Shown here in pieces: positions 1,360-23,628 of a DNA stretch of 64,000 bases (the stretch's first letter is position 1; each line of letters opens with the position of its first letter). The stretch lies in NCBI GenBank assembly GCA_030949385.1, contig JAUZSP010000007.1, positions 67,210-131,209 of the forward strand, in the 5' to 3' direction. Source of the DNA: Gammaproteobacteria bacterium. Lineage in GTDB: Bacteria > Pseudomonadota > Gammaproteobacteria > JAUZRS01. The notes beneath the pieces are model-generated. The model saw only the letters and a program-made list of their open reading frames with translations, was not told the DNA's origin and made no database searches. The translations under genes were made by a program, and so were the position numbers.

Positions 1360-2676
1360 ATGAAACAGGTGGATCAACTGCTGCACGCACGTTGGATTGT
1401 CACAGTCAATAAAAACAACGAGCTGTTGCAACAGCACACTCTGGTCGTTGATCAAGGCAAGATCATCGACATTCTGCCCACCGAGTTGGCCAAACAGAGC
1501 TACCACGCCACACAGGTTGACGATCTGGGCGAGCAACTGCTGATGCCCGGCTTGATCAACGCCCACACCCATCTGGCGATGAATCTGTTGCGCGGTTTTG
1601 CCGACGATCTGCCCTTGATGGAGTGGTTGGAACAACAGATCTGGCCTGCCGAAGGGCGCTGGGTCGATGAACAGTTTGTCGCCGACGGCAGCGAACTGGC
1701 GATGGCAGAGCTGATCCGCAGCGGCACCTCCTGTTTTAACGACATGTATTTTTTCCCCGAAATCACCGCTCAGGTCGCGCAGCAAGTCGGGCTGCGTGCC
1801 AGCATTGGCCTGATGATGATCGACTTCCCCACCGCGTGGGGCAGCGGCCCTGAGGAGTATCTGCAAAAAGGCCTCGCCCTCCAGCAGCAGTACCAAGATC
1901 ACCCGCTGATCCGCACCGCTTTTGCCCCTCATGCCACCTACACCGTCTCCGATGAACCTCTGTTGCAGCTCAAACAGGCGGCGCAACAACACAACAGCGC
2001 CATCCACATTCATCTGCACGAAACCGCCGCTGAAATCGCCCTACACCAAAAACAGCACGGCTGCCGTCCACTGGCACGGTTGGATAAGCTGGGGATGCTG
2101 AACGCCAACCTGCAAGCGGTTCACATGACCCAACTCAGCGACGAGGAGATTCAGCAACTGGCCGACAACGGGGTGCAGGTGATTCACTGCCCTGAATCCA
2201 ACCTCAAATTGGCCAGCGGTTTTGCCCCCATCGCCAAGCTGCTGGCAGCCGGAGTCAATGTGGCGCTGGGTACAGACGGAGCCGCATCCAATAACGATCT
2301 GGATCTGTTTGCTGAGATGCGCACCGCTGCGCTGTTGGCCAAAGGCGTGGCGGGCGATGCCAGCGTCGTGCCGACCACCACCGCTCTGCGCATGGCCACC
2401 ATCAACGGCGCTGAGGCTTTGGGTATTGCCGATCAGACCGGTTCACTGGAAGTTGGCAAAGCCGCCGATGTGATCGCCATTGACCTCAATACCATCGAGA
2501 CTCAACCGCTCTACGATCCTGTTTCACAGCTGGTTTATGCCAGCAGCAGAAATCAGATCACCCACCTCTGGGTAGCCGGTAAACAGCTGCTCAAAGAGCG
2601 TCAATTGACCACTCTGGATGAGACGGAGATCATCAGAAAAGCGCAACTTTGGCAGAAGAAAATTGGCGGTCAATGA
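1360..2676 (+). CDS. mtaD: TRZ/ATZ-family amidohydrolase, 5-methylthioadenosine/S-adenosylhomocysteine deaminase-like
   Basis: PGLINAHTH, HLHET, HCPESNLKLASG and LGTDGAASNNDLD motifs. Confidence 0.85.
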   Translation: MKQVDQLLHARWIVTVNKNNELLQQHTLVVDQGKIIDILPTELAKQSYHATQVDDLGEQLLMPGLINAHTHLAMNLLRGFADDLPLMEWLEQQIWPAEGRWVDEQFVADGSELAMAELIRSGTSCFNDMYFFPEITAQVAQQVGLRASIGLMMIDFPTAWGSGPEEYLQKGLALQQQYQDHPLIRTAFAPHATYTVSDEPLLQLKQAAQQHNSAIHIHLHETAAEIALHQKQHGCRPLARLDKLGMLNANLQAVHMTQLSDEEIQQLADNGVQVIHCPESNLKLASGFAPIAKLLAAGVNVALGTDGAASNNDLDLFAEMRTAALLAKGVAGDASVVPTTTALRMATINGAEALGIADQTGSLEVGKAADVIAIDLNTIETQPLYDPVSQLVYASSRNQITHLWVAGKQLLKERQLTTLDETEIIRKAQLWQKKIGGQ

Positions 2677-2767
2677 TTTAAAGGGGGTTTGTTGGGGTGG
2701 TTACTCCCTGAACAATGAGTTTACTGATTCAACTCACCTGACAACGACACAAACGGTGTTTAGATCG

Positions 2768-3028
2768 TTATGCCGCTATTTCATGATCAACATCCCAACC
2801 AGGAAAGACTAAAACTGCTGGGTGACATTTTAATGCTCTGGCCAATACTTTCGCTCTTTCCACGCCTAGTTTTATTTTATCGTGCTCGATGGCTGAAAGC
2901 GTTGATTGCGGTATGCCCGTTATTGAAGATAAATCGTTTTGACTTAACTCCTGTAGCTCACGGATAATTTTTACAGACTCGCCAATAGAAACATCTGTTC
3001 TTTTTTTTGCTTCTTTATAGTCTGTCAT
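2768..3028 (-). CDS. XRE/HigA-type HTH antitoxin
   Basis: 86 aa from ATG 3028; HTH LSQNDLSSITGIPQSTLSAIE; lies directly downstream of a RelE-like gene. Confidence 0.8.
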   Translation of the reverse strand: MTDYKEAKKRTDVSIGESVKIIRELQELSQNDLSSITGIPQSTLSAIEHDKIKLGVERAKVLARALKCHPAVLVFPGWDVDHEIAA

Positions 3029-3029
3029 G

Positions 3030-3311
3030 TTATTTCCTCTGGTAGTCATGTGCTGTGACCTTGATTACGTTTACAAACAGTTGATCATTTTCAATTTTGT
3101 AGATAATGCGATATTGAATATTCAGGCGTGAAGATCGATAGCCTTTCCATTCACCGCGCAATGCTTCATCTTTAAAACCCTTAATCTGTTTAAGACCTGA
3201 AGGGCCTGATATTATTACGATATCTTTCCATTTCTCATATCGTTTAAGGATGTCGATAGGTAACGATCTTAGTCCTTTCAATGCACTTTTGTGCTCATAT
3301 ATTTTCCACAT
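3030..3311 (-). CDS. RelE/YoeB/HigB-superfamily mRNA interferase toxin
   Basis: 93 aa from ATG 3311; DEALRGEWKGYRSSRLNIQYRIIY is typical of the RelE fold; toxin-before-antitoxin (higBA) order; AT-rich. Confidence 0.8.
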   Translation of the reverse strand: MWKIYEHKSALKGLRSLPIDILKRYEKWKDIVIISGPSGLKQIKGFKDEALRGEWKGYRSSRLNIQYRIIYKIENDQLFVNVIKVTAHDYQRK

Positions 3312-3321
3312 ACTAAATAGT

Positions 3322-3349
3322 AGCATATATACCATATATGGTATGTCAA
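3322..3349 (-). promoter_or_regulatory. Sigma70 promoter of the TA operon overlapped by a 16-bp palindromic operator
   Basis: Minus strand TTGACA (3349-3344)-N16-TATGCT (3327-3322); perfect palindrome ATACCATATATGGTAT at 3329-3344. Confidence 0.65.
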
Positions 3350-3464
3350 ATTTTATTACGTTAGTGTCGCCCTACGAAGTCCATTCCATTTTTTTAAGAA
3401 AAAGACAAGCGATTCGCGCTAGGATGGGAACCACATCACCTGTCCCACCTTCAAGGACGATTCC

Positions 3465-5087
3465 ATGCAACAGGCATCCGCAGACAACCACTACCGACAA
3501 CAACTCACCCTGTTACAGCAAAACTATCAAAAACAACTGCCCGAACAACTGACTCAACTGGAATCCGCTTGGCAAGCCTTTCGCCTGAATAACTTCGACC
3601 AACAAGCAAAACATCATTTAGAACAAACCCTTAGAAAACTCACCCCCTCCAATCTTGCTCACCTTTTGCCCGACATCAACCTCAGCATCAGCCAGCTACA
3701 AACGCTGTTTCACGACTTTCTACAAGGTAAAAAGAACGACAGCAACCAAAAAAAAATTCAACTGATTCTAAACACACTGCGACATCAGGTTGAACAGCAA
3801 CACCCACTGGAAAAAAGCCCTCCAGCCAAAACCCACATTCCCCACAACCCCACCACCCTGCTGCTGGCACTCGATCCCCTCAGCGAAGCGGCACTCTGGG
3901 AACCGCTGCAACAGCAGGGCTATCGACTCAAACGAATGCAGCACGACACCCCCTTATTGGAGCAGATCGAACAGCAGAACATCGACCTGCTGTTGCTCAA
4001 CGTTGACCTCCACCACGATCGCCTACCTGCACCGCATAATTTACAAAAACTCTTGCCCCAATTGCCGGTTAAAACCCTGCTGATCTCCGACGACGACAGC
4101 ATGAAAAACCGTTTGTCAGCGGTTAAAGCGGGCGGTTCGGCTTTTTTTGCCACCCCCATCGAAGTGCCCACGCTGCTGGATAAAATAGCCTCGCTCTGCG
4201 GCAGCAACAGCACCCACCCCTACCGTGTAATGATCATTGAGGATGCCATCGAACAAGTGCAGTTCTATACCAGCCTGTTAAAAGCCTACGATTTTGACGT
4301 GACCGTCTGCACAAAACCCTTGGAGATCAATCGCTATCTGGCCAAATACGACCCAGAGTTGATTCTAATGGACCTCTATATGCCCGACGTTAACGGCTAC
4401 GAATTGGCGCAGACCCTTCGACAACAAGACGCACTCTTCAGTCTGCCGATTGTATTCCTCTCCAGTGAACACGACCCACAATTACAGCTGCAAGCGTTGC
4501 AGTCCGGTGGCGATGATTTTCTCAGCAAGCCCGTTCACCCGCGCCAGCTCTGCCTCACGCTGGCAGGGCACATTGAACGCTACCGGAAAATGTGCCGTCA
4601 CAGCGAAATTGACTCCATGACAGGGCTATTAAAACGGGATAAATTTCAGCAACGTCTGGAAAGTGAACTGCTCAGAGCCTATCGCTACACACAGTCGGTT
4701 TCACTGCTGCTGATTGATACGGATCATTTTAGAGAGATTAATCGAATTTACGGCTTCAGCATCGGTGATCAGGTCATAAAAACCCTCGCCAATTTACTCC
4801 GACAACGGCTACGCTCCACAGACATCATCGCCCGCTACAGCGGCGAAAAATTTGCCGTTATTCTGCCCGAAACAGATAAGCAGAGCGCCGAACAGTTAAG
4901 CAACCACCTGCGCGACAGTTTTGCCACCACCCCTTTTCAAGGTCAGCAACAGAGCTTTTTCACCAGCTTCAGTGCAGGGGTCAGCGATAATCACGGCAAC
5001 CACTCTTACCAACAACTGCTGGAGAGCGCCGAAGAAGCGCTGAATAAAGCCAAGCAGAGTGGGCGAAATCGGGTTGCTATGCAGTAA
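3465..5087 (+). CDS. Hpt-like/REC/REC/GGDEF-domain protein with a degenerate GGDEF active site
   Basis: Second REC intact (MIIED...LILMDLYMP...FLSKP); GGDEF fold (DSMTGLLKR, LLLIDTDHF, GDQVIK) but the A-site reads RYSGEKF; RxxD (RSTD) present. Confidence 0.85.
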   Translation: MQQASADNHYRQQLTLLQQNYQKQLPEQLTQLESAWQAFRLNNFDQQAKHHLEQTLRKLTPSNLAHLLPDINLSISQLQTLFHDFLQGKKNDSNQKKIQLILNTLRHQVEQQHPLEKSPPAKTHIPHNPTTLLLALDPLSEAALWEPLQQQGYRLKRMQHDTPLLEQIEQQNIDLLLLNVDLHHDRLPAPHNLQKLLPQLPVKTLLISDDDSMKNRLSAVKAGGSAFFATPIEVPTLLDKIASLCGSNSTHPYRVMIIEDAIEQVQFYTSLLKAYDFDVTVCTKPLEINRYLAKYDPELILMDLYMPDVNGYELAQTLRQQDALFSLPIVFLSSEHDPQLQLQALQSGGDDFLSKPVHPRQLCLTLAGHIERYRKMCRHSEIDSMTGLLKRDKFQQRLESELLRAYRYTQSVSLLLIDTDHFREINRIYGFSIGDQVIKTLANLLRQRLRSTDIIARYSGEKFAVILPETDKQSAEQLSNHLRDSFATTPFQGQQQSFFTSFSAGVSDNHGNHSYQQLLESAEEALNKAKQSGRNRVAMQ

Positions 5088-13217: not shown

Positions 13218-14264
13218 TCACAACGGCAACGTCCGAAAACGCCACTGCACACTCTCCTGCACACCCCGATCTTCAAACACCACCTCAGCCACATAATCCG
13301 CTCGCTCTTGCAGCAACGCCAAGGGAAACAGGGCGTACTCATAAACGCTGAATTTGCCGTTCACATCCGTGGCTTGCGAAATCAAGCGGGTGTTCGTCAC
13401 CTCGCCTTGATCATCAAAGAGGCGAAACGAGATCAGTTTCACCTGCTCGCTAACATAGTAGGGGTTAAATTGAATCGAAAGTGGGTTGCCCGCCTGTTGA
13501 TAATCGGGCAGCGGATTAGGCACTTCATTGCCCCAAAAGGCCGGATAAACATCGGTGGCTTGATCCATTGGCCAAAGCACGTAACGTGGGTTTTGGCTCG
13601 CTACGCCATCCAAGGCGGCTTGATAATCGGCGGTGGCTATTTTCAAATTTTCATCGGCACAAACAGCATAATAATAGCCGCCAGAAACAAACGTGCTGTT
13701 CAGACACACATTATTTAACCCACTGCTGCCGCCGTTATGCACAAAACTGTAGAGGCAATTATTCTCCTGTGCGGTAAAACCAATCCCCACCTCATCCCGA
13801 TAAAAATCCAAAATAGCAAAACGGTGATAAATGGCCGTCATCAAACCATCAATGGACGCCACCACCGTACTGCCCTGCCCCACCACCCCTTCGTTGACAT
13901 TGGTACTGCGATAACCAAACCGAAGCGCCCGCGCAGCGGCATCCACCCCACTAAAACCAACCCCAGTTTGCACCTCAGCATGACCGGCCTGCTGATTGAG
14001 TTTTAAATAACCCGCATGGCTGCCCGCCGCCCCTTGCAAGGCATCACTGACCGTCACCGCAATCAAACCCGTCTGTTGACGCACGTCATTAAAATACCGA
14101 TACGCCCGCGCTAAAGAGGGAGCCGTACAGCTGCGGCTGTCAATAACAGGGGGTTTTAAGACTAAATTTTCAGCAGAGGGCGACACATCCGTGCCGGAAT
14201 CGGAGGAACAGGCCACTAAAAAAGAGACCACGAATAAAATAAAAAACCTTCGGAACAGACCCAT
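13218..14264 (-). CDS. CAP/SCP-domain lipoprotein with a C-terminal extension
   Basis: Lipobox LVAC; AAGSHAGYL..H.E, LMTAIYHRFAIL, EVGIG CAP motifs. Confidence 0.75.
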   Translation of the reverse strand: MGLFRRFFILFVVSFLVACSSDSGTDVSPSAENLVLKPPVIDSRSCTAPSLARAYRYFNDVRQQTGLIAVTVSDALQGAAGSHAGYLKLNQQAGHAEVQTGVGFSGVDAAARALRFGYRSTNVNEGVVGQGSTVVASIDGLMTAIYHRFAILDFYRDEVGIGFTAQENNCLYSFVHNGGSSGLNNVCLNSTFVSGGYYYAVCADENLKIATADYQAALDGVASQNPRYVLWPMDQATDVYPAFWGNEVPNPLPDYQQAGNPLSIQFNPYYVSEQVKLISFRLFDDQGEVTNTRLISQATDVNGKFSVYEYALFPLALLQERADYVAEVVFEDRGVQESVQWRFRTLPL

Positions 14265-14425: not shown

Positions 14426-17269
14426 TCAACGCCGCAACACAAACTCATCCATCACCTCGTGCAAATAGTTGTACGCCACCACCTTAAGCTCATCGCCCTG
14501 CACTTGAATGTGAGTGAATCCCCAACGTTTTTCAGGCGCTTTTGGCTCATCATCGCCTTTATTGGCGTTATCAAACAGCACCGGCTGGCCATCGGCACGA
14601 CGGGCAATAAAGTCATAACCAATGCCCCACTTGCGTTTCTGCTCAAGCCACAACTCGCTTTCATACTCGCTCGGTTGTGTGGAACGGTTGTGCAGATCCG
14701 CACCGCCGTTACCGATGCCAATGTAGGTGATGCCCTCTTGAGTATCAATTTTACCGCCCGAAATACGGATGATCTGACCATCAGCATCAAACTTCAGCGG
14801 CTGCGTACGCTGGTACATGTGATCGTGACCAAAAAGAACAAACTGCACCCCCAATTTTTGCAAACGGGGGAACAATTTCTGTCGCATACGTCGATTTTCG
14901 CTGCGATCCCCATAGGTGCCGTGGGGCTCGAACGAAAGCGGCGAATGGTGAAACAAAACCAATTTCCACGGCTGCTGGCTCGCTTTCAGATCCGCCTCCA
15001 TCCACGCCAACATCTGTGGCAGACGCGCCCGCTCACTGTTTTTGCTGGCAAACTTCATCGAATCCAACACCACAAAATGCACCGGCCCTGAATCAAAACT
15101 AAAGTAACGCTCCCGGTCCTCCTCTGGCATCCCAGTGGAGCTGGGATAGGCAAACGAGGCCAAATACCCCTTGGGCAGATTCTGCTCTTTATTGGCGTAT
15201 TCGTGATTGCCCAGAGAGCTGAAAAAAGGCCGGTGCATTAAAATACCGCGTTCCGGCTGCTTTTTACCCTTACCGCTGAGTTGATCAAAAAACTTCTGAT
15301 CAAACTGCTTGTAGCTGCCGCTGGAATAGGCAATGTCCCCCACCCCAATGCTAAAGTCATGCGGGTATTTCCAGATGCCGTTCTCGCGGCTGGAAATGGC
15401 ATCGCGCACCTTGCGCGGCTGACTGTATTTGGTACCCGAATCACCAAAGGCGATAAAATTAACTGCTTTACTGCTCGCATCGGGCAAGGTCTTAAAAGAG
15501 ACCGCACTGGCCAGCAGCAAGCCGTTGTGCAACAGATCAAAACGGTATTCCGTATCCGGCTCCAGATCAAACAGCTGCACCAAATGCTGCTCAAAATCCT
15601 GTTTTAGCCCCGTCTCCTGCTTGGCAAAATGCTGCTGACGGGAAGGGAAATCACGCCATGTGGTTTCGCCTTTTTTCCAAAGCCGCAACAGACCGTGACC
15701 GGCAGCGTAACTGCCCCAGAGAATCTTTACCTCCGTGGCCGACTGCGCTTGCAAGTAGGGGTAACGAAACAAAATGCCTTTGGCCTCTTTACGCGGCATC
15801 ACCTCTTTTTGTTGGCTGGGCTGCAACTCGCCAATTCGATGCTCTCGTTCATGCGCCCCCAGATCTGGGTGTTGGCGATCAAAGCGCGACACCCCCGAGA
15901 AATCGGTCAACAGACCGTCCATCCCCTCCGCCCTCTCCAGCGCGGGGCTGCCTTGCTTCAGTTTCAATACGTTCAAATCCGCAAACAACGGGTCTTTAAT
16001 CTCACTGTTTAAATCAAAGCCGGTTTTTTGCTGCCAACGTTTTAGGGAGACCTTCTCTAAACCGTGCTGCTCCCAATTGAAACGGAGTTTTGCACCTTTA
16101 TCCGTCCAATAAAGATTGTTATCCAACTCTAGGGTTTTGGGATCGACCAAAGCATTACTGGAGATTTTCACCGCTGGGCGGCCTTTTGCCGAGGAGACAT
16201 GCACAATGTTATTTTTGATTGTGATGTTCTCACCCGCCTGCCCCACTTCCGACTCATTGGAGAGAAAAATCGCCCCGTGCGCCCGCGTAGAAGCGTTGTA
16301 ACAACTGTTGTTGTAAATCAACACCCCAGAAGAGGAGGCGCTGGCCAAACAGGCCTCGCCTGTGTTGATAATGACGTTGTTGCGAATGATGCCATCGTAA
16401 CTCTCGAAATTGCCATCCCGCAGACGCTCTGCGTCTGTGGATTGACCCAACATAATGCCGCGTTCGTAAATGTTGCGCAGCAGATTGCCTTCAAACACCG
16501 TGTCACGGGCGTTACCCTTGGCGTACATACCGATGGAGGGGATGTCATGCACAACATTGCGTGCCACCCAAGTGCGCGCTGCACCCACGATGTCCACCCC
16601 TTGCGCGTTGGCACCGAGCTTGGCATCAGGGGAATAAATCTCATTTCCGTAGATCACCACATCGTCAGCGGTATGAACCAGCTTGACGATGTCGCGCTTG
16701 GAGCCGTGCAGTTTGTTGCGAATCAGATGCACAAACGGCGTGTCGATCTTCACCACATAATGCTTGCCGCCCACCACCTCCAGACCCTCCACACTCCAGT
16801 ACATCGGCTTGAAGTCGTCGTTGTAAAAATAGAGGGCTTGTGTGCGTCCCTGCGCTTCGATAACCACCGATTCATTGCCAAAAGCACGCAAATTGATCCA
16901 CGCATCAGCGCGACCTGGGCGTTTAATGCTCACCCCTTTGTAACGACCTTCGCGCAAAAAGATCGTCTCGCCTGGCAGCACTCGTGACACCGCTTCTTTG
17001 AGGCTGCGCAAGGGAGTTTGCAACGTGCGCCCCTCGTTGTCATCGTCACCCTTAGGTGAAACGTAATACCGACGAGGCTGCGGTATTTTGATCCTTCCCA
17101 ACGACGGCGAGACCTGCAAAGGAGACTGCTCTTTGGCAACCGCCACCTCGCTGAACGGCGCAAGCGGCGGCAACTCACCACACGCAACCAAAGACAGCAA
17201 CAGCGACATCCACATCAACCCCACCCATTGAAACGTGCTCCGACCTACTCTCAACCCGCCCATTCGCAT
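14426..17269 (-). CDS. Lipoprotein: right-handed beta-helix (DUF1565/PL9-like) fused to a purple acid phosphatase (FN3 + metallophosphoesterase)
   Basis: Lipobox LVAC; YYVSPKGDDDNEG..PLRSL..A...PGETIFLREGRY and repeated I.NN.I.N units; GDSG, GDIAY, GNHE, FHH and GHDH motifs. Confidence 0.8.
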   Translation of the reverse strand: MRMGGLRVGRSTFQWVGLMWMSLLLSLVACGELPPLAPFSEVAVAKEQSPLQVSPSLGRIKIPQPRRYYVSPKGDDDNEGRTLQTPLRSLKEAVSRVLPGETIFLREGRYKGVSIKRPGRADAWINLRAFGNESVVIEAQGRTQALYFYNDDFKPMYWSVEGLEVVGGKHYVVKIDTPFVHLIRNKLHGSKRDIVKLVHTADDVVIYGNEIYSPDAKLGANAQGVDIVGAARTWVARNVVHDIPSIGMYAKGNARDTVFEGNLLRNIYERGIMLGQSTDAERLRDGNFESYDGIIRNNVIINTGEACLASASSSGVLIYNNSCYNASTRAHGAIFLSNESEVGQAGENITIKNNIVHVSSAKGRPAVKISSNALVDPKTLELDNNLYWTDKGAKLRFNWEQHGLEKVSLKRWQQKTGFDLNSEIKDPLFADLNVLKLKQGSPALERAEGMDGLLTDFSGVSRFDRQHPDLGAHEREHRIGELQPSQQKEVMPRKEAKGILFRYPYLQAQSATEVKILWGSYAAGHGLLRLWKKGETTWRDFPSRQQHFAKQETGLKQDFEQHLVQLFDLEPDTEYRFDLLHNGLLLASAVSFKTLPDASSKAVNFIAFGDSGTKYSQPRKVRDAISSRENGIWKYPHDFSIGVGDIAYSSGSYKQFDQKFFDQLSGKGKKQPERGILMHRPFFSSLGNHEYANKEQNLPKGYLASFAYPSSTGMPEEDRERYFSFDSGPVHFVVLDSMKFASKNSERARLPQMLAWMEADLKASQQPWKLVLFHHSPLSFEPHGTYGDRSENRRMRQKLFPRLQKLGVQFVLFGHDHMYQRTQPLKFDADGQIIRISGGKIDTQEGITYIGIGNGGADLHNRSTQPSEYESELWLEQKRKWGIGYDFIARRADGQPVLFDNANKGDDEPKAPEKRWGFTHIQVQGDELKVVAYNYLHEVMDEFVLRR

Positions 17270-17622: not shown

Positions 17623-18780
17623 ATGCTCAAACTGTTACCTCGTAATGCCGGTATTTGGGTTGGCGACTATCTGCGCCAACGTCTTAGCTGTCCCACACCC
17701 AAACCGACCCCAGAGAACCCGACACACATTCTCTTCTGTTTGGTCGATCATTACGAACCGCGCTGGGGCACCCCCCCCCGCGAGCAAGAGTTCGCCCGAG
17801 TGGATTACTGGCTGGAACAGTACCCAAAAATGGCCGCTCAGTTCACCGACAGCGACGGTTTTAACCCGCGCCACAGCTACTTTTTCCCCTACGACGAATA
17901 CGAAGCGGAACACATCGAATCCCTCGCTCAGCTCTGCGAACAGGGCTACGGCGAGATCGAAGTACACCTGCACCATCGTCACGATACAGACGCCGGTTTT
18001 CGCCAGAAAATGAACGACTTCGTCGAAATTCTGCACCAGCAACACAACGCCTTGGGCATCAACAAAGAGGACGGCAAGCCCAAATACGCCTTTATTCACG
18101 GCAACTGGGCGCTGAACAACTCACGCCCCGATGGCGATTGGTGTGGGGTCGATAACGAGAGTCAAATTTTAGTCGAGACCGGCTGTTTTGTGGACATGAC
18201 CATGCCCTCCGCTCCCAGCGACACCCAGACCCAAAAGGTCAACAGCATCTATTACGGCAACGAATTTAATGGCAAAGCCAAATGCCACGACTTTGGCGAT
18301 GACATTCGAGTCGGCACCCCACAGCAAGAAAAACTCATGCTGATTCAAGGTCCCTTAATGCTGAACTGGAAAAACCGCAGCAAAGGCCTGATTCCCAAAA
18401 TCGAAAACGCCGAATTGGACGCCGACAACCCACCCACTCTGGATCGGGTCAAACTCTGGCCAAAAGCCAACGTGCATGTGATGGGGAGACTCGACTGGCA
18501 GTTCATCAAACTGCACACCCACGGAGCGGGTGAAGCCAACGCCACCACCCTACTGGAAAAAGAGGGCGTGGAGATGCACCAACATCTGGCCACACTCTAC
18601 AAAGACGACCCCTGTTATCGCCTCCACTACGTCACCGCTCGTGAAATGAGCAACATCGCGCTGGCGGCGCAAGACGGCAAAAGCGGCAACCCCAATCAAT
18701 ACCGTGACTACAAAATATTGCCTTCAAGCCGCTGGACGCAGCAGAGTGCCAAACCCACGAAAAAAGTCTCCGGCTTATGA
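17623..18780 (+). CDS. Conserved hypothetical protein, possible polysaccharide deacetylase-like metalloenzyme
   Basis: 385 aa with host-like codon usage; DHYEP, EVHLHH, FIHGNWAL and KLHTHG motifs; 4-nt overlap with the next GT4 gene. Confidence 0.55.
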   Translation: MLKLLPRNAGIWVGDYLRQRLSCPTPKPTPENPTHILFCLVDHYEPRWGTPPREQEFARVDYWLEQYPKMAAQFTDSDGFNPRHSYFFPYDEYEAEHIESLAQLCEQGYGEIEVHLHHRHDTDAGFRQKMNDFVEILHQQHNALGINKEDGKPKYAFIHGNWALNNSRPDGDWCGVDNESQILVETGCFVDMTMPSAPSDTQTQKVNSIYYGNEFNGKAKCHDFGDDIRVGTPQQEKLMLIQGPLMLNWKNRSKGLIPKIENAELDADNPPTLDRVKLWPKANVHVMGRLDWQFIKLHTHGAGEANATTLLEKEGVEMHQHLATLYKDDPCYRLHYVTAREMSNIALAAQDGKSGNPNQYRDYKILPSSRWTQQSAKPTKKVSGL

Positions 18781-19874
18781 GTGAACAGCCCAAAATACGG
18801 GTGATGCTGATGAACGATTCGCTCAATATGGGCGGCGCTGAAACCATGATTTTCAGCCTCATCTGTGATCTGGATGCCCAACGCATCACACCCTACGCCC
18901 TCTCCATGTCCGTTGATGATGCCCTCAAACAGACCTTTTTAGACACAGGCATCCCCGTCTATGAGTGCCCGAAAGGATCCGGCTTAGATTGGAAACTGCC
19001 GCTGCGCATCGCCAAAATTTTACGCCGCGAAAAAATCGAAATCCTACACACCCACAACTTTGCCTCATGGCTCTGGGGCGGGCTGGCCAGCCTCTTTGCC
19101 CCACGTTGTAAATTGGTACATACACAGCACTCCAACATCGTCCTCAACCGCCTACCACCCAAACCGCTGCGCGCCTTGCTGGCACGGATCAGCAAAAAAG
19201 TGGTGACGGTCAGCGACCCCGTGGCCGAGCATCTGCAACGGGACGGTTTTGCCCCCGCCAACAAACTGCAAGTGATCTACAACGGCATCCCTCTCAAACC
19301 CGAGCAGCACGCCAAAGACCCTGATTATCGTCATCTGGCCATAGTGGCGCGTTTGGTGCCAGTGAAAAACCACGAATTATTGATTCGCAGCTTTGCCCAA
19401 GCCTGCCAACTGCAAAACAACATCAAACTGGACATTCTTGGCGATGGCCCCTTGCGAGATGAACTACAGCACCTCAGCAACAGCCTCGGCATGGACAGCA
19501 AAATCAAGTTTTGGGGCGAAGTCCCCAACGCCCGCGCTCTGATGACCAGCTTTGATGCCTTTGTGCTTAGCTCCCTCAGCGAAGGGCTTTCCATCTCCAT
19601 TTTGGAAGCCCTCGCCGCCGGTCTGCCGGTAATCGCCACCGATGTGGGTGGCAATGGCACCTTGGTACAGCATCAAAAAAATGGCTTACTGGTGCCGTCA
19701 GAAGATCAAGATCAACTGGCGGCGGCCATCAATCGCCTCTTAGGTGATAAAAAATTGCGCGAACAGATGAGCAAAAAAAGTCTGCACATCGTCACCGAAG
19801 GCTTTTCCAATCAGACCATGGTTGATCATTACCAACAGATTTACGCCCACGCTTTGGGACGAACCACGTTGTAA
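18777..19874 (+). CDS. Glycosyltransferase family 4
   Basis: GGAE N-terminal loop, ARLVPVKNH, EGLSISILE (EX7E), ATDVGG. Confidence 0.9.
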   Translation: MSEQPKIRVMLMNDSLNMGGAETMIFSLICDLDAQRITPYALSMSVDDALKQTFLDTGIPVYECPKGSGLDWKLPLRIAKILRREKIEILHTHNFASWLWGGLASLFAPRCKLVHTQHSNIVLNRLPPKPLRALLARISKKVVTVSDPVAEHLQRDGFAPANKLQVIYNGIPLKPEQHAKDPDYRHLAIVARLVPVKNHELLIRSFAQACQLQNNIKLDILGDGPLRDELQHLSNSLGMDSKIKFWGEVPNARALMTSFDAFVLSSLSEGLSISILEALAAGLPVIATDVGGNGTLVQHQKNGLLVPSEDQDQLAAAINRLLGDKKLREQMSKKSLHIVTEGFSNQTMVDHYQQIYAHALGRTTL

Positions 19875-19916
19875 ACCCATGTTGATCTTCATTAAAATAA
19901 GAGGCTACCGCCAACC

Positions 19917-21047
19917 ATGCCAACCCCGCTAAAACTGATTCACGTCATCAGTGCCAACGATGTCTTTGGCCCTGAAAAAACCACCATCAACGAATGCCGC
20001 GCTCTGATCAAAGAAGGCTGGGATTGCCAGATCATCAACTTCTGGGACACCGACGACATTCCCATTCGCGCCAAAGCCGAGGCAGCCGGTGTCCCTTATC
20101 GCTGCATTATCAGCAAAAAACGCTTTGATAACGGCGTGGTCGCGAAGCTGAAAAAGACCTTTAAAGAGACCGGCTGCGATCTGGTTCACAGCCACGGTTA
20201 CAAATCCGACCTCTACTGCCATTTGGCGGCGCGCAAACTGCCCACCAAAACCGTCACCACCATTCACGGCTGGACCTCTGAAGATTTTAAAGTGCGCCTG
20301 TATGAAAAAATGCAGGCCTTTATTTGGCGTTTTTACGACCGTGTGTTTGCCGTCTCGCGTCAGTATCGAGACATTGCAATCAAAAAAGGCGTGCCGCACA
20401 ACAAATTGCACATTCTTTACAACGGCATCATCTACGACCCCAAAGCGCCCCGCTCCAGCGCAGAAGACAAACAGCACGCCCGCAAAAAATTTGGCCTTAA
20501 AGAAGGCGACATCAGCATCGGCATTGTGGGGCGACTCAGCATTGAAAAAGCCCACGATTTTTACCTAGAAGTCGCCGCTCTGGTGGTCAAAGAGCAGCCG
20601 CAAGCCAAATTTTTGATCATCGGTGATGGTTTGCAACGAGATGCCTTAGAGCGGCAGGTGCAGAAACTGGGCATCGCTGACAACGTGATTTTTGCCGGTC
20701 ATGTGGACGACATGCAAAGCGCCTACGACGCGATGGACATCGAGGCCATTTGCTCTCATCGTGAAGGGCTGCCCAACGCCCTACTGGAAGCGATGTTAAA
20801 CGAAATCCCCGTAGTCTCCGTCGCCGTGGGCGGTGTTCCCGATGTGGTGGAAGGTGAACAGGGCGGGATCATTATCAACACCCGTGATCAGAAAAAGTTT
20901 GCCCGCAAACTCAAAAAACTGATCGAAAGCAGCGAACTACGCCAACAACTGGGCAAAAAAGGCCGCCGCCAGATCAAACAGAACTTCACCTTCCAGCGCC
21001 GTTTGGAACTGGTAACCCAACACTACCGCGAACTGATTGGCGCTTAA
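19917..21047 (+). CDS. Glycosyltransferase family 4
   Basis: HSHGYK, GRLSIEKAH, EGLPNALLE (EX7E), VGGVPDVV. Confidence 0.9.
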   Translation: MPTPLKLIHVISANDVFGPEKTTINECRALIKEGWDCQIINFWDTDDIPIRAKAEAAGVPYRCIISKKRFDNGVVAKLKKTFKETGCDLVHSHGYKSDLYCHLAARKLPTKTVTTIHGWTSEDFKVRLYEKMQAFIWRFYDRVFAVSRQYRDIAIKKGVPHNKLHILYNGIIYDPKAPRSSAEDKQHARKKFGLKEGDISIGIVGRLSIEKAHDFYLEVAALVVKEQPQAKFLIIGDGLQRDALERQVQKLGIADNVIFAGHVDDMQSAYDAMDIEAICSHREGLPNALLEAMLNEIPVVSVAVGGVPDVVEGEQGGIIINTRDQKKFARKLKKLIESSELRQQLGKKGRRQIKQNFTFQRRLELVTQHYRELIGA

Positions 21048-21061
21048 TTAAAGGATCTCTT

Positions 21062-22219
21062 ATGCCCATTGCCGCTTACCCGCTGCTGCTGCTGTTTTTT
21101 CTGCTCGGCGGCTTTTTCCTCTATCTGCTGTTGCTCGCCTTTTGGGGGATCAAAGTTCGCCCCACAAGCAGTGAACCCCCCGCCTACCGTTTTAAACTGT
21201 TAATCGCCGCCCACAACGAAGAGCACAGCCTTGATGGCCTGATGCAGTCGATCAAAAACGCCAACTACCCCAAAGAATTAATCCAAACTCAATTTATTGC
21301 CGACCACTGCGACGACGCCACCGTCGAGGTCATTCGTGGGCAAGGCTTTGAGGTCATTGACCGTCAGCAAGGGGCGCGAGGCAAATCCGCCTCCATTGCT
21401 GAGGCGATGAATAAGCTGATCCCCGATCTGGATGAAGAGAAAGACGTGGTGCTGATTTTTGATGCAGACAACCTTATTGACCGCGAATTTTTTAATGAAA
21501 TGGCCAAAGCCTTAGCCAACGGTGCCGAGGTGGTACAAGGCAACACCGGCATTCACAATCGCTACGCCAGCCTCTTTACCAAACTCAATCACGTTAATTT
21601 TGCCGTCACCAATCGTTTTAAAGAGCTGGCGCGCAGCCAAGCCGGTCTCACCTGTCGTTTGCGTGGCCACGGCATGGCCTTTCGTCCCTCGTTGATCAAG
21701 CAGCTCAACTGGCAAGCGGGTACTTTGGTGGAAGATCAAGAGATGGTGTTGCAGTTGGTGCTCAAAGACCAGCGGGTTCGATGGGCGCATCGAGCTGAAG
21801 TCAACAGCGTCATTCCCGACTCACCCAAAGCCGCTGCGGCGCAGCGCAAACGCTGGGCAGGAGGCAAAAGCGAGCTGACCAAAAACGCCACCCGAGTGTT
21901 ATTCGACAAAGCCCGCACGGATAAAAGCCCGATTGCCTTTGATCTGATGATGGATTATATAATGCCCTCCTACGCCATTCAGCTCGGCCTGATTATGCTC
22001 TCGACGCTGGCCGCTTGGTTTTTCCTCGGCAACGAAAACTGCCTAACGCACGGCTTTATTCTGCTCACCGTGGCCTTTTTGAGTTATTACTTTATCGCCA
22101 GCCTATTGGAAAAAGTGCCGGTTTTGGTCTTTGCCACCTTTCTGCTCTCGCCCTTTTTCATCTTCTGGCGCGTCTGGATCTTTATCAGCAGCCTACGCGG
22201 AGCCAAAAGCTGGGATTGA
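21062..22219 (+). CDS. Membrane glycosyltransferase family 2 with processive-type motifs
   Basis: IAAHNEE, DAD (DxD), ED and QRKRW (QxxRW); N- and C-terminal TM helices. Confidence 0.88.
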   Translation: MPIAAYPLLLLFFLLGGFFLYLLLLAFWGIKVRPTSSEPPAYRFKLLIAAHNEEHSLDGLMQSIKNANYPKELIQTQFIADHCDDATVEVIRGQGFEVIDRQQGARGKSASIAEAMNKLIPDLDEEKDVVLIFDADNLIDREFFNEMAKALANGAEVVQGNTGIHNRYASLFTKLNHVNFAVTNRFKELARSQAGLTCRLRGHGMAFRPSLIKQLNWQAGTLVEDQEMVLQLVLKDQRVRWAHRAEVNSVIPDSPKAAAAQRKRWAGGKSELTKNATRVLFDKARTDKSPIAFDLMMDYIMPSYAIQLGLIMLSTLAAWFFLGNENCLTHGFILLTVAFLSYYFIASLLEKVPVLVFATFLLSPFFIFWRVWIFISSLRGAKSWD

Positions 22220-22663: not shown

Positions 22664-22673
22664 ACGTCACTCC
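22656..22673. repeat. 18-bp direct repeat, copy 1 (contains the fliJ RBS and GTG start)
   Basis: gcctgcacacgtcactcc, identical to 23610-23627; extends to 22 bp with one mismatch. Confidence 0.9.
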
Positions 22674-22712
22674 ATTAGCTTCATTTTGTCCGCGTGTAAC
22701 ACCTTGTTATGA
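22674..22712 (-). other. Putative truncated (left half) integron attC site
   Basis: Minus strand TCATAAC-AAGGT-GTTACACGCGGAC-AAAATGAAGCT; the TAA stop of the upstream gene lies in the RYYYAAC-like inverse core. Confidence 0.5.
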
Positions 22713-22955
22713 AATTTCTTGCCCATGACTCCATAGCTCATACTCACTAATATCAATACTGTTATTCCAAGCTACGGCATAACCACCCTGCTCTACTTGA
22801 ACCGCCTTGAATAAAGCTTGATTTTTTAATGGAGAAAACATCTCTTTAGCCAGCAATGGAGTTATATCATATTTTCTTTTATGATTATTATTAAACTCAA
22901 CGATCAAGGTATGATCATCAATAGCTTTTACCGATTTTATTTTTGGATATGTCAT
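22707..22955 (-). CDS. DUF2442-like protein (putative antitoxin)
   Basis: 82 aa; IKSVKAIDDHTLIVEFNN, F..V.V..GG..VAWNNSIDI..YELW pattern. Confidence 0.75.
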   Translation of the reverse strand: MTYPKIKSVKAIDDHTLIVEFNNNHKRKYDITPLLAKEMFSPLKNQALFKAVQVEQGGYAVAWNNSIDISEYELWSHGQEIS

Positions 22956-22957
22956 TT

Positions 22958-23206
22958 TTAATTCAATGGTTGTAGTTTGTGGAATTCCTGACTATCCCAC
23001 ATCTGTTTCAATTCATGCTTGTTAATGGTAGCCCACTCAACAACCAGTTTTTTGGCTCTTTTTGGTAAATCTCCTTCTATCATTTCAAGGGTGTTTATGC
23101 TGAACAAGCCAACATACTCACCATAAACCGCATGAAAATGTGGTGGCGGATGATCTCCAAAAAATAACTTTATGACTATTCCGTAAAATCTTGCTATTTC
23201 AGGCAT
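22958..23206 (-). CDS. DUF4160-like protein (putative toxin)
   Basis: 82 aa; MPEIARFYGIVI.LF..DHPPPHFHA.YG, G.LP.RA..LV.EWA pattern. Confidence 0.8.
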   Translation of the reverse strand: MPEIARFYGIVIKLFFGDHPPPHFHAVYGEYVGLFSINTLEMIEGDLPKRAKKLVVEWATINKHELKQMWDSQEFHKLQPLN

Positions 23207-23609
23207 GTTGCTTCCTCATATTTTTTTCTGTAACGACTGCAATAATTGGCGTTTTATAAAAATATTTCTGAATGGACGACCCACAGCACCCACTCCGCCT
23301 CTGTAATAAATAGCCAATTCTTAAAGGCCAACCACCTCTTCTGTAAGCAGAAACATATACATCAAATAGAACAATATTACCATAAAAAATACGGCCATTG
23401 GCCATTATCAGTAAAATCAAAATAATCTATTAAAACCTAATATTGCACCCTGAGTGAAAAAACATGCAAACAATTCCCCTCCCCTGGAGAGGTGACTCAA
23501 AAAAGTGGGGGCTAATTTCTGCAACCAAGGGAAATAATGAGGAACGTTCAGCTAAGCCTCACAATTAAGTAGCACGAAAGCCTTGTCAAGGCATAACATC
23601 CATTTAGGA

Positions 23610-23627
23610 GCCTGCACACGTCACTCC
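23610..23627. repeat. 18-bp direct repeat, copy 2 (immediately after the fliI stop)
   Basis: gcctgcacacgtcactcc, identical to 22656-22673. Confidence 0.9.
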
Positions 23628-23628
23628 G

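Follow-up and report, generated by a model that had tools for sequence, protein, structure and literature searches.

Purple acid phosphatases (PAPs) of plants, animals and fungi are known for their part in phosphate nutrition and bone turnover. Their hallmarks are acid phosphatase activity and an Fe(III)-M(II) centre coloured by Tyr-to-Fe charge transfer. Plant-type PAPs of solved structure include those of kidney bean (4dhl, 2qfp and 1kbp) and sweet potato (1xzw), the wheat PAP phytase (6git) and lupin PPD1 (3zk4). PhoD of Bacillus subtilis (2yeq) has a PAP-like fold, is located outside the cytoplasm and attacks a phosphodiester-linked cell-wall glycopolymer. Right-handed beta-helices are found in Pel9A (PL9, 1ru4), LnbX (GH136, 5gqc), XylC (GH120, 3vst) and a PL9 rhamnogalacturonan lyase (5olr). 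In Pantoea stewartii, the beta-helical, tailspike-like enzyme WceF, whose activity has been shown experimentally, modifies a glycan and is encoded with the exopolysaccharide genes of its substrate (PMC7949094). Here, we describe a gene whose product, named P0001, joins a beta-helix to a predicted plant-type PAP in a single putative lipoprotein. It lies in a stretch of 64,000 nucleotides (positions 67,210 to 131,209 of contig JAUZSP010000007.1, assembly GCA_030949385.1) from a Gammaproteobacteria bacterium, an uncultured marine organism; this stretch is hereafter called the window.

P0001 shares with the plant enzymes the two-domain build, the five PAP motifs and the seven metal ligands, including the chromophoric tyrosine. 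A Foldseek search of the PDB aligned its C-terminal half to plant PAPs, which are 424 amino acids long, with TMt values of 0.70-0.74 over about 480 columns spanning both the FN3-like and the catalytic domains. Profile comparison gave E-values of 1e-13 to 1e-16, yet identity was 14-19%. Unlike plant PAPs, P0001 is bacterial, lipid-anchored and preceded by a beta-helix of 420 residues. The wheat phytase and lupin PPD1 were also retrieved, with PhoD as a weaker match (E 3e-13). Like PhoD, P0001 would work outside the cytoplasm, but it has neither a Pfam PhoD match nor a twin-arginine (RR) motif in its leader, and its ligand set is of PAP type, with the tyrosine in GDxxY. The N-terminal half has the right-handed beta-helix and the N-terminal cap motif of Pel9A, LnbX, XylC and the rhamnogalacturonan lyase (Foldseek E 2e-11 to 7e-10), but the sequence likeness to Pel9A ends after the cap. 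The logic proposed below for this half is that of WceF, a likeness by role and not by sequence comparison. Unlike P0001, WceF is not known to have a phosphatase domain.

A first-pass annotation, made from the letters alone, had described a 947-residue lipoprotein with helix and PAP in one open reading frame (ORF), and this description held. The gene is a single ORF on the minus strand (14426..17269, 947 codons and a stop; Table 1), with a Shine-Dalgarno ribosome-binding site, GAGGGGG, 8 nt 5' of the ATG. The leader, MRMGGLRVGRS...LLLSLVAC, is basic and then hydrophobic (hydrophobic segment at residues 13-34) and ends in the lipobox L-V-A-C with Cys30, matching the bacterial lipoprotein pattern, in which a basic n-region and then a hydrophobic h-region precede [LVI][ASTVI][GAS]C. 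Most fused homologues have a lipobox-like cysteine as well, and at the tether position they carry low-complexity Gly/Ser/Pro linkers or immunoglobulin (Ig)-like Big_5 stalks. P0001 is thus predicted to be a lipoprotein exported to the cell envelope, anchored at Cys30 through a tether of about 30 residues. The AlphaFold2 model, built with 102 homologues, has a mean predicted local distance difference test (pLDDT) score of 90.2 and a predicted template modelling (pTM) score of 0.87. Disorder (pLDDT <50) is confined to residues 1-61, comprising the leader and tether, and to residues 479-482 of the linker. For a two-domain model, a pTM of 0.87 suggests a fixed mutual orientation of the halves.

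Judged by sequence and model, the C-terminal half is a complete plant-type PAP, with an FN3-like domain and a binuclear metal centre that includes a tyrosine ligand. Pfam Metallophos matches residues 605-819 at 44.6 bits (cut-off 21.5). Pfam Pur_ac_phosph_N is sub-threshold in P0001 (residues 507-594, 22 of 30 bits) and passes in homologues at 39-43 bits; the model places an FN3-like beta-sandwich at residues 500-593. The five motifs are GDSG (609-612), GDIAY (644-648), GNHE (687-690), FHH (773-775) and GHDH (814-817), answering to the PAP signature GDxG / GDxxY / GNH(D/E) / VxxH / GHxH. Across 13 fused homologues these motifs are invariant, as are the seven ligands D610, D645, Y648, N688, H774, H815 and H817, together with H689 and H783, and a profile from the same 13 proteins places all five motifs on the ligand motifs of kidney-bean PAP. 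The FN3-like domain and the five motifs had been read correctly from the letters.

For the N-terminal half, the expectation of a DUF1565/PL9-like helix stood for the fold and failed for sequence membership. Pfam Beta_helix matches residues 181-354 at 41 bits (cut-off 25.9), and the model shows regular three-strand coils over residues 67-431 with a helix pLDDT >90, i.e., the right-handed parallel beta-helix that characterizes the PL9 fold. The Foldseek matches of this half in the PDB were Pel9A (1ru4, E 2e-11, TMt 0.65), GH136 lacto-N-biosidases, GH120 XylC, a phage tailspike, lyases of families PL9 and PL6, and AlgE4. A Foldseek search of a viral library returned generic tailspike and PhoD-like matches, which decide nothing. 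At the sequence level, DUF1565 is sub-threshold (residues 73-111, 13 bits against a cut-off of 20.3, E 0.065), and PF22842 was not detected in P0001 at E <= 0.1, so that PL9 membership fails over the catalytic coils. PelX (20 of 1490 bits) and PelN (18 of 740 bits) match the N-terminal cap alone, far under their cut-offs, and the alignment of the P0001 profile with Pel9A is restricted to Pel9A residues 8-128. Filing the helix under PL9 or DUF1565 was therefore rejected, since the sequence likeness is confined to the N-terminal cap (about residues 64-140), and this half is best termed PL9-like by fold, outside the PL9 family. At the other end, the predicted PDLGAHE cap (residues 468-474) was confirmed inside the NCBIfam model choice_anch_Q, NF041518 (residues 435-475, 25.7 bits, cut-off 25).

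Conservation was evaluated across 83 helix homologues with 27-100% identity, helix-only proteins included. Beside a structural asparagine ladder, nine residues, D193, K196, N221, D226, K251, E260, N262, E289 and R296, are each at least 93% conserved. Judging from this alignment, the acidic and basic stripe that they form may be a glycan-binding groove, perhaps a catalytic one. PL9 active sites have a Ca-binding Asp cluster and a Lys base, to which the conserved acidic (D193, D226, E260 and E289) and basic residues (K196, K251 and R296) of the helix may or may not correspond. The Chromatiales homologue P0014 (L006 / L014) is 32% identical to P0001 in the helix half and 50% in the PAP half; its helix looks degenerate, riding on an intact phosphatase.

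That two genes had been joined through a sequencing or assembly error was considered as an alternative. Apart from split versions, which do occur in other organisms, no support was found for it. One reading frame without a stop runs through the two halves, the model covers the linker, and the uninterrupted ORF recurs in an independent Arctic Mid-Ocean Ridge metagenome-assembled genome (MAG; 96% identity, L010), in three more assemblies (84%, L002-L004) and in about ten further lineages (40-50%). Because independent assemblies carry the same uninterrupted ORF, an assembly or frameshift artefact is excluded for practical purposes.

The fusion is rare. Among 1.84 billion representative proteins, 7 clusters span both halves in one alignment, whereas the relatives of a single half number in the hundreds to thousands (262 matches at E <= 1e-30; 4,321 at E <= 1e-10). 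Of the 185,579 species genomes searched, about 5 have the fused gene, and a sixth (L015) has the halves as separate genes. The carriers among these species genomes are all uncultured Gammaproteobacteria, including vent and sediment MAGs of Chromatiales, Acidiferrobacterales and 'Enterobacterales'. Searches of the PDB, of NCBIfam and other curated families and of the literature returned no solved structure, family or paper with a beta-helix and a PAP combined, in line with the first-pass annotation, which knew of no characterized enzyme of this architecture. Both domains come from known superfamilies, and the combination itself is without a described precedent that we could find.

We then compared how the two halves are coupled across loci. 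L001, L015 and L098 have them as two neighbouring genes, both of which encode a lipobox. The metagenome proteins P0058, P0062, P0134, P0142 and P0148 join the same beta-helix family to a different, divergent phosphatase subfamily (Metallophos + Metallophos_C), and P0137 does so in the reversed order. Because the same helix family has been joined to a second phosphatase subfamily, and in both orders, the beta-helix/phosphatase fusion has arisen more than once. Extra copies are found as helix-PAP-helix in L001, as PAP-helix-PAP in L015 and L098, and as fusion, helix and PAP in L090. In L015, L017, L090 and L098, the PAP gene has another kind of helix gene, a pectate-lyase-like one, beside it. 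Adjacency, repeated fusion and extra copies suggest, as Rosetta-stone evidence, that the helix and the phosphatase function jointly. The distant PAP homologues (25-34% identity, 74 loci, mostly Bacteroidota) have no beta-helix of the P0001 family nearby, and the coupling therefore seems specific to the close clade.

Two further observations concern these loci. In L090, the gene at 1487-4273, which encodes the Metallophos + Metallophos_C fusion P0058, adjoins two stand-alone genes, one for a helix and one for a PAP of the window type. The pectate-lyase-like protein (L015 5858-7837, L017 6046-7377, L098 from 132, L090 from 1679) has a weak PF00544 match and a Glucodextran_B-like Ig domain, and its gene lies directly upstream of PAP genes of the P0001 clade.

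In the window, the P0001 gene is transcribed divergently from a plus-strand operon of four genes at 17623-22219, encoding P0116, two GT4 glycosyltransferases and a GT2 glycosyltransferase, as had been noted from the letters. The co-occurrence proposed for this operon was examined and holds: at least five separate lineages have homologues of its genes next to a fused or split beta-helix/PAP gene, with orientations that differ. Among 10 distinct loci, 5 adjoin homologues of the P0116/GT4/GT2 operon, divergent or convergent, and 7 belong to or border on polysaccharide clusters, recognized by Wza, Wzc/GNVR, Wzx, Wzy, Bac_transf, CE4 or UDP-GlcNAc 2-epimerase. A position within or beside the biosynthetic cluster of the putative substrate, which is the WceF-like arrangement, is therefore found at these 7 of 10 loci. 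Besides the window lineage, P0116 and glycosyltransferase homologues flank beta-helix/PAP genes at L006 (Chromatiales; P0116 homologue 62%, homologue of GT4a 49%), L015 (Acidiferrobacterales), L098 and L090/L102, with CE4 deacetylases, UDP-GlcNAc 2-epimerase and Wzy interleaved at the four loci. L001 has Wza, GNVR and Bac_transf. In L013, a same-strand operon encodes Wzc, an APH-like kinase, Wzx, an epimerase, a GT4, the fusion, an LtaS/EptA-like 'Sulfatase' membrane protein, Wzy and acyltransferases. The association with polysaccharide genes is frequent, not obligatory.

APH-like kinases are encoded at L006, L013 and L098, and LtaS/EptA-like membrane transferases of the 'Sulfatase' family at L013 (12890-14578, directly downstream of the fusion) and L102 (about 15526). 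These kinases and transferases in sister clusters hint that the polymers carry phosphate. Of note, the L013 and L102 LtaS/EptA-like proteins, each with a multi-transmembrane N-terminus and a Sulfatase-family domain, share 39% identity within otherwise different clusters.

With somewhat better than even confidence, we propose that P0001 works in the envelope on a polysaccharide of the cell's own making, which it would bind or cleave and from which it would take off a phosphate ester. The two halves would share this substrate, a secreted polymer produced by the neighbouring deacetylase-like, GT4, GT4 and GT2 genes. The chain would be gripped, and perhaps cleaved, by the helix, and the target of the phosphatase would be a phosphate ester that the chain carries, as a phospho-substituent or in a sugar-phosphate linkage; what we infer here is the identity of the substrate, the kind of bond that is broken and any catalysis by the helix. 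Several points weigh against this proposal. Every carrier is an uncultured MAG, and a search of sequencing runs for the gene returned 0 runs. The window locus itself has no kinase, phospho-transferase or Wza/Wzx/Wzy gene within 64 kb, and at the fused loci L005, L007 and L008 the available DNA contains no polysaccharide genes. P0014 lacks K196, N221, D226, K251 and E289, five of the nine conserved helix residues, and keeps every PAP ligand. Because this homologue drops them and retains an intact phosphatase, the helix is not necessarily catalytic; the phosphatase would be the indispensable activity in one lineage at least, where the helix may serve binding alone.

The same loss in P0014 would fit a generic envelope phosphatase on a passive stalk, the helix being a rigid spacer or adhesin and the PAP hydrolysing small soluble organophosphates unrelated to the glycan, and many homologues indeed add Ig-like Big_5 stalk domains. 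We regard this as quite improbable, given that the nine polar helix residues are conserved to such an extent even in helix-only proteins, that split helix and PAP genes stay adjacent, and that extra beta-helix genes accumulate in L001, L015 and L090. Phosphorus scavenging, which the first-pass annotation had offered beside remodelling of the operon's product, is the main rival, if still an unlikely one. A surface enzyme would then attack foreign phosphorylated polymers (teichoic-acid-like phosphoglycans, phosphomannans or capsule debris), with the helix as depolymerase or binder and the PAP freeing orthophosphate. PhoD and GlpQ act on wall teichoic acid in Bacillus, and the Foldseek matches tie the C-terminal half to PhoD as well as to plant PAP phytases; moreover, one of the three fused loci that lack nearby polysaccharide synthesis genes is followed by a gene for a Phosphonate-bd protein. 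Scavenging is weakened by the promoter region, since no Pho-box-like site lies upstream of the P0001 gene: a search for CTGTCAT-N4-CTGTCAY with up to 3 mismatches gave 3 matches in 64 kb, against 8 expected by chance in shuffled sequence, and none near the gene. The P0001 gene has neither a phosphate transporter gene nor a TonB receptor gene next to it in the window, and the clusters at 7 of the 10 loci are biosynthetic, not catabolic. Because homologues of the same operon adjoin fused or split genes in at least five lineages, remodelling of the operon product is favoured over phosphorus scavenging.

A more specific form of the proposed polysaccharide role, which we consider a long shot, is that the beta-helix/PAP module acts as an 'eraser' of a phosphate mark on exopolysaccharides. 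The APH-like kinases or LtaS/EptA-like transferases of sister clusters would add phosphate, or a phosphate-bearing group, to the polymer or to its undecaprenyl-pyrophosphate-linked or end-capped intermediate. The envelope lipoprotein would then remove or cleave the phosphate, leading to chain release, termination or maturation.

The first gene of the divergent operon encodes P0116, a protein with invariant His/Asp motifs (DHxEP, HxHH and HGNW), whose homologues across Proteobacteria, about 50% identical, number more than 5,900. A PDB sequence search gave no match for P0116, and its AlphaFold2 model (pLDDT 92) led by fold search to the CE4-like polysaccharide-deacetylase fold. In the cultured Thalassotalea ponticola and Leptothrix, the family is found within large Wza/Wzc/Wzx/Wzy exopolysaccharide clusters, and it looks like an unannotated core family of polysaccharide clusters. 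The block comprising the GT2, GT4, GT4 and P0116 genes, the fusion and a CAP-domain lipoprotein gene is kept in the 96% and 84% relatives, and the genes past the CAP gene differ. No terminator-like site was found in the 161 nt between the P0001 gene and the CAP gene (P0119). Elsewhere in the window, between fliJ and fliI (22664-23628), lies a low-GC insert (about 38-43%) of about 0.96 kb with two 82-residue ORFs; it is present in the 96% relative L010 and missing from the 84% relative L002, where fliJ directly follows fliI.

Table 1. Features of the P0001 gene and of its neighbours, in window coordinates (aa, residues of P0001 unless a neighbouring protein is named).
Feature	Position	Strand	Evidence
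Whole ORF P0001, beta-helix / purple-acid-phosphatase lipoprotein	14426..17269	-	Full-length homologues, 40-96% identity
Predicted signal peptide and lipobox LVAC, aa 1-30, Cys30	17180..17269	-	Sequence; upstream ribosome-binding site GAGGGGG
Disordered Pro/Ser-rich tether, aa 31-61	17087..17179	-	pLDDT <50
Right-handed beta-helix, aa 62-478	15836..17086	-	Pfam Beta_helix; AlphaFold2; Foldseek 1ru4/5gqc/3vst/6f7k; conservation in 83 homologues
Beta-helix C-terminal cap, choice-of-anchor-Q, aa 435-475, ...PDLGAHE	15845..15967	-	NCBIfam NF041518
Inter-domain linker, aa 479-499; split versions are separate genes at this point	15773..15835	-	pLDDT dip; split genes in L001, L015, L098
FN3-like beta-sandwich, PAP N-terminal domain, aa 500-594	15488..15772	-	Weak Pfam Pur_ac_phosph_N; model strands 500-593; Foldseek
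Predicted binuclear metallophosphoesterase domain, aa 595-947	14429..15487	-	Pfam Metallophos; invariant columns; profile alignment to kidney-bean PAP
Operon gene 1, 385-aa cytoplasmic protein P0116, no Pfam/NCBIfam family, CE4-like deacetylase fold	17623..18780	+	Model; homologues adjoin beta-helix/PAP genes in L006, L015, L090, L098
Operon genes 2-3, two GT4 glycosyltransferases; best NCBIfam match (sub-threshold) PEP-CTERM/XrtA-system glycosyltransferase stp2	18777..21047	+	
Operon gene 4, synthase-type membrane GT2; DAD 134-136, ED 224, QRKRW 261-265; one N-terminal and several C-terminal transmembrane helices	21062..22219	+	
Downstream CAP/SCP-domain lipoprotein P0119, lipobox LVAC	13218..14264	-	Kept beside the fusion only in 84-96% relatives

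Exopolysaccharides of the sea and of sediments frequently carry charge, which governs metal binding, aggregation and carbon export. A bacterial PAP joined to a polysaccharide-enzyme fold in exopolysaccharide loci points to an unstudied step, the addition and removal of phosphate esters on secreted bacterial glycans, and its recurrent fusion and adjacency yield a clear testable hypothesis. The comparison also flags P0116 as a widespread unannotated family and core component of polysaccharide clusters. An enzyme that edits the charge of exopolysaccharides would be relevant to biofilm biology and glycan biotechnology. If the beta-helix/PAP module does erase a phosphate mark, this would reveal a phosphorylation/dephosphorylation step in polysaccharide export, and P0001 and its relatives would be the first glycan-directed purple acid phosphatases.

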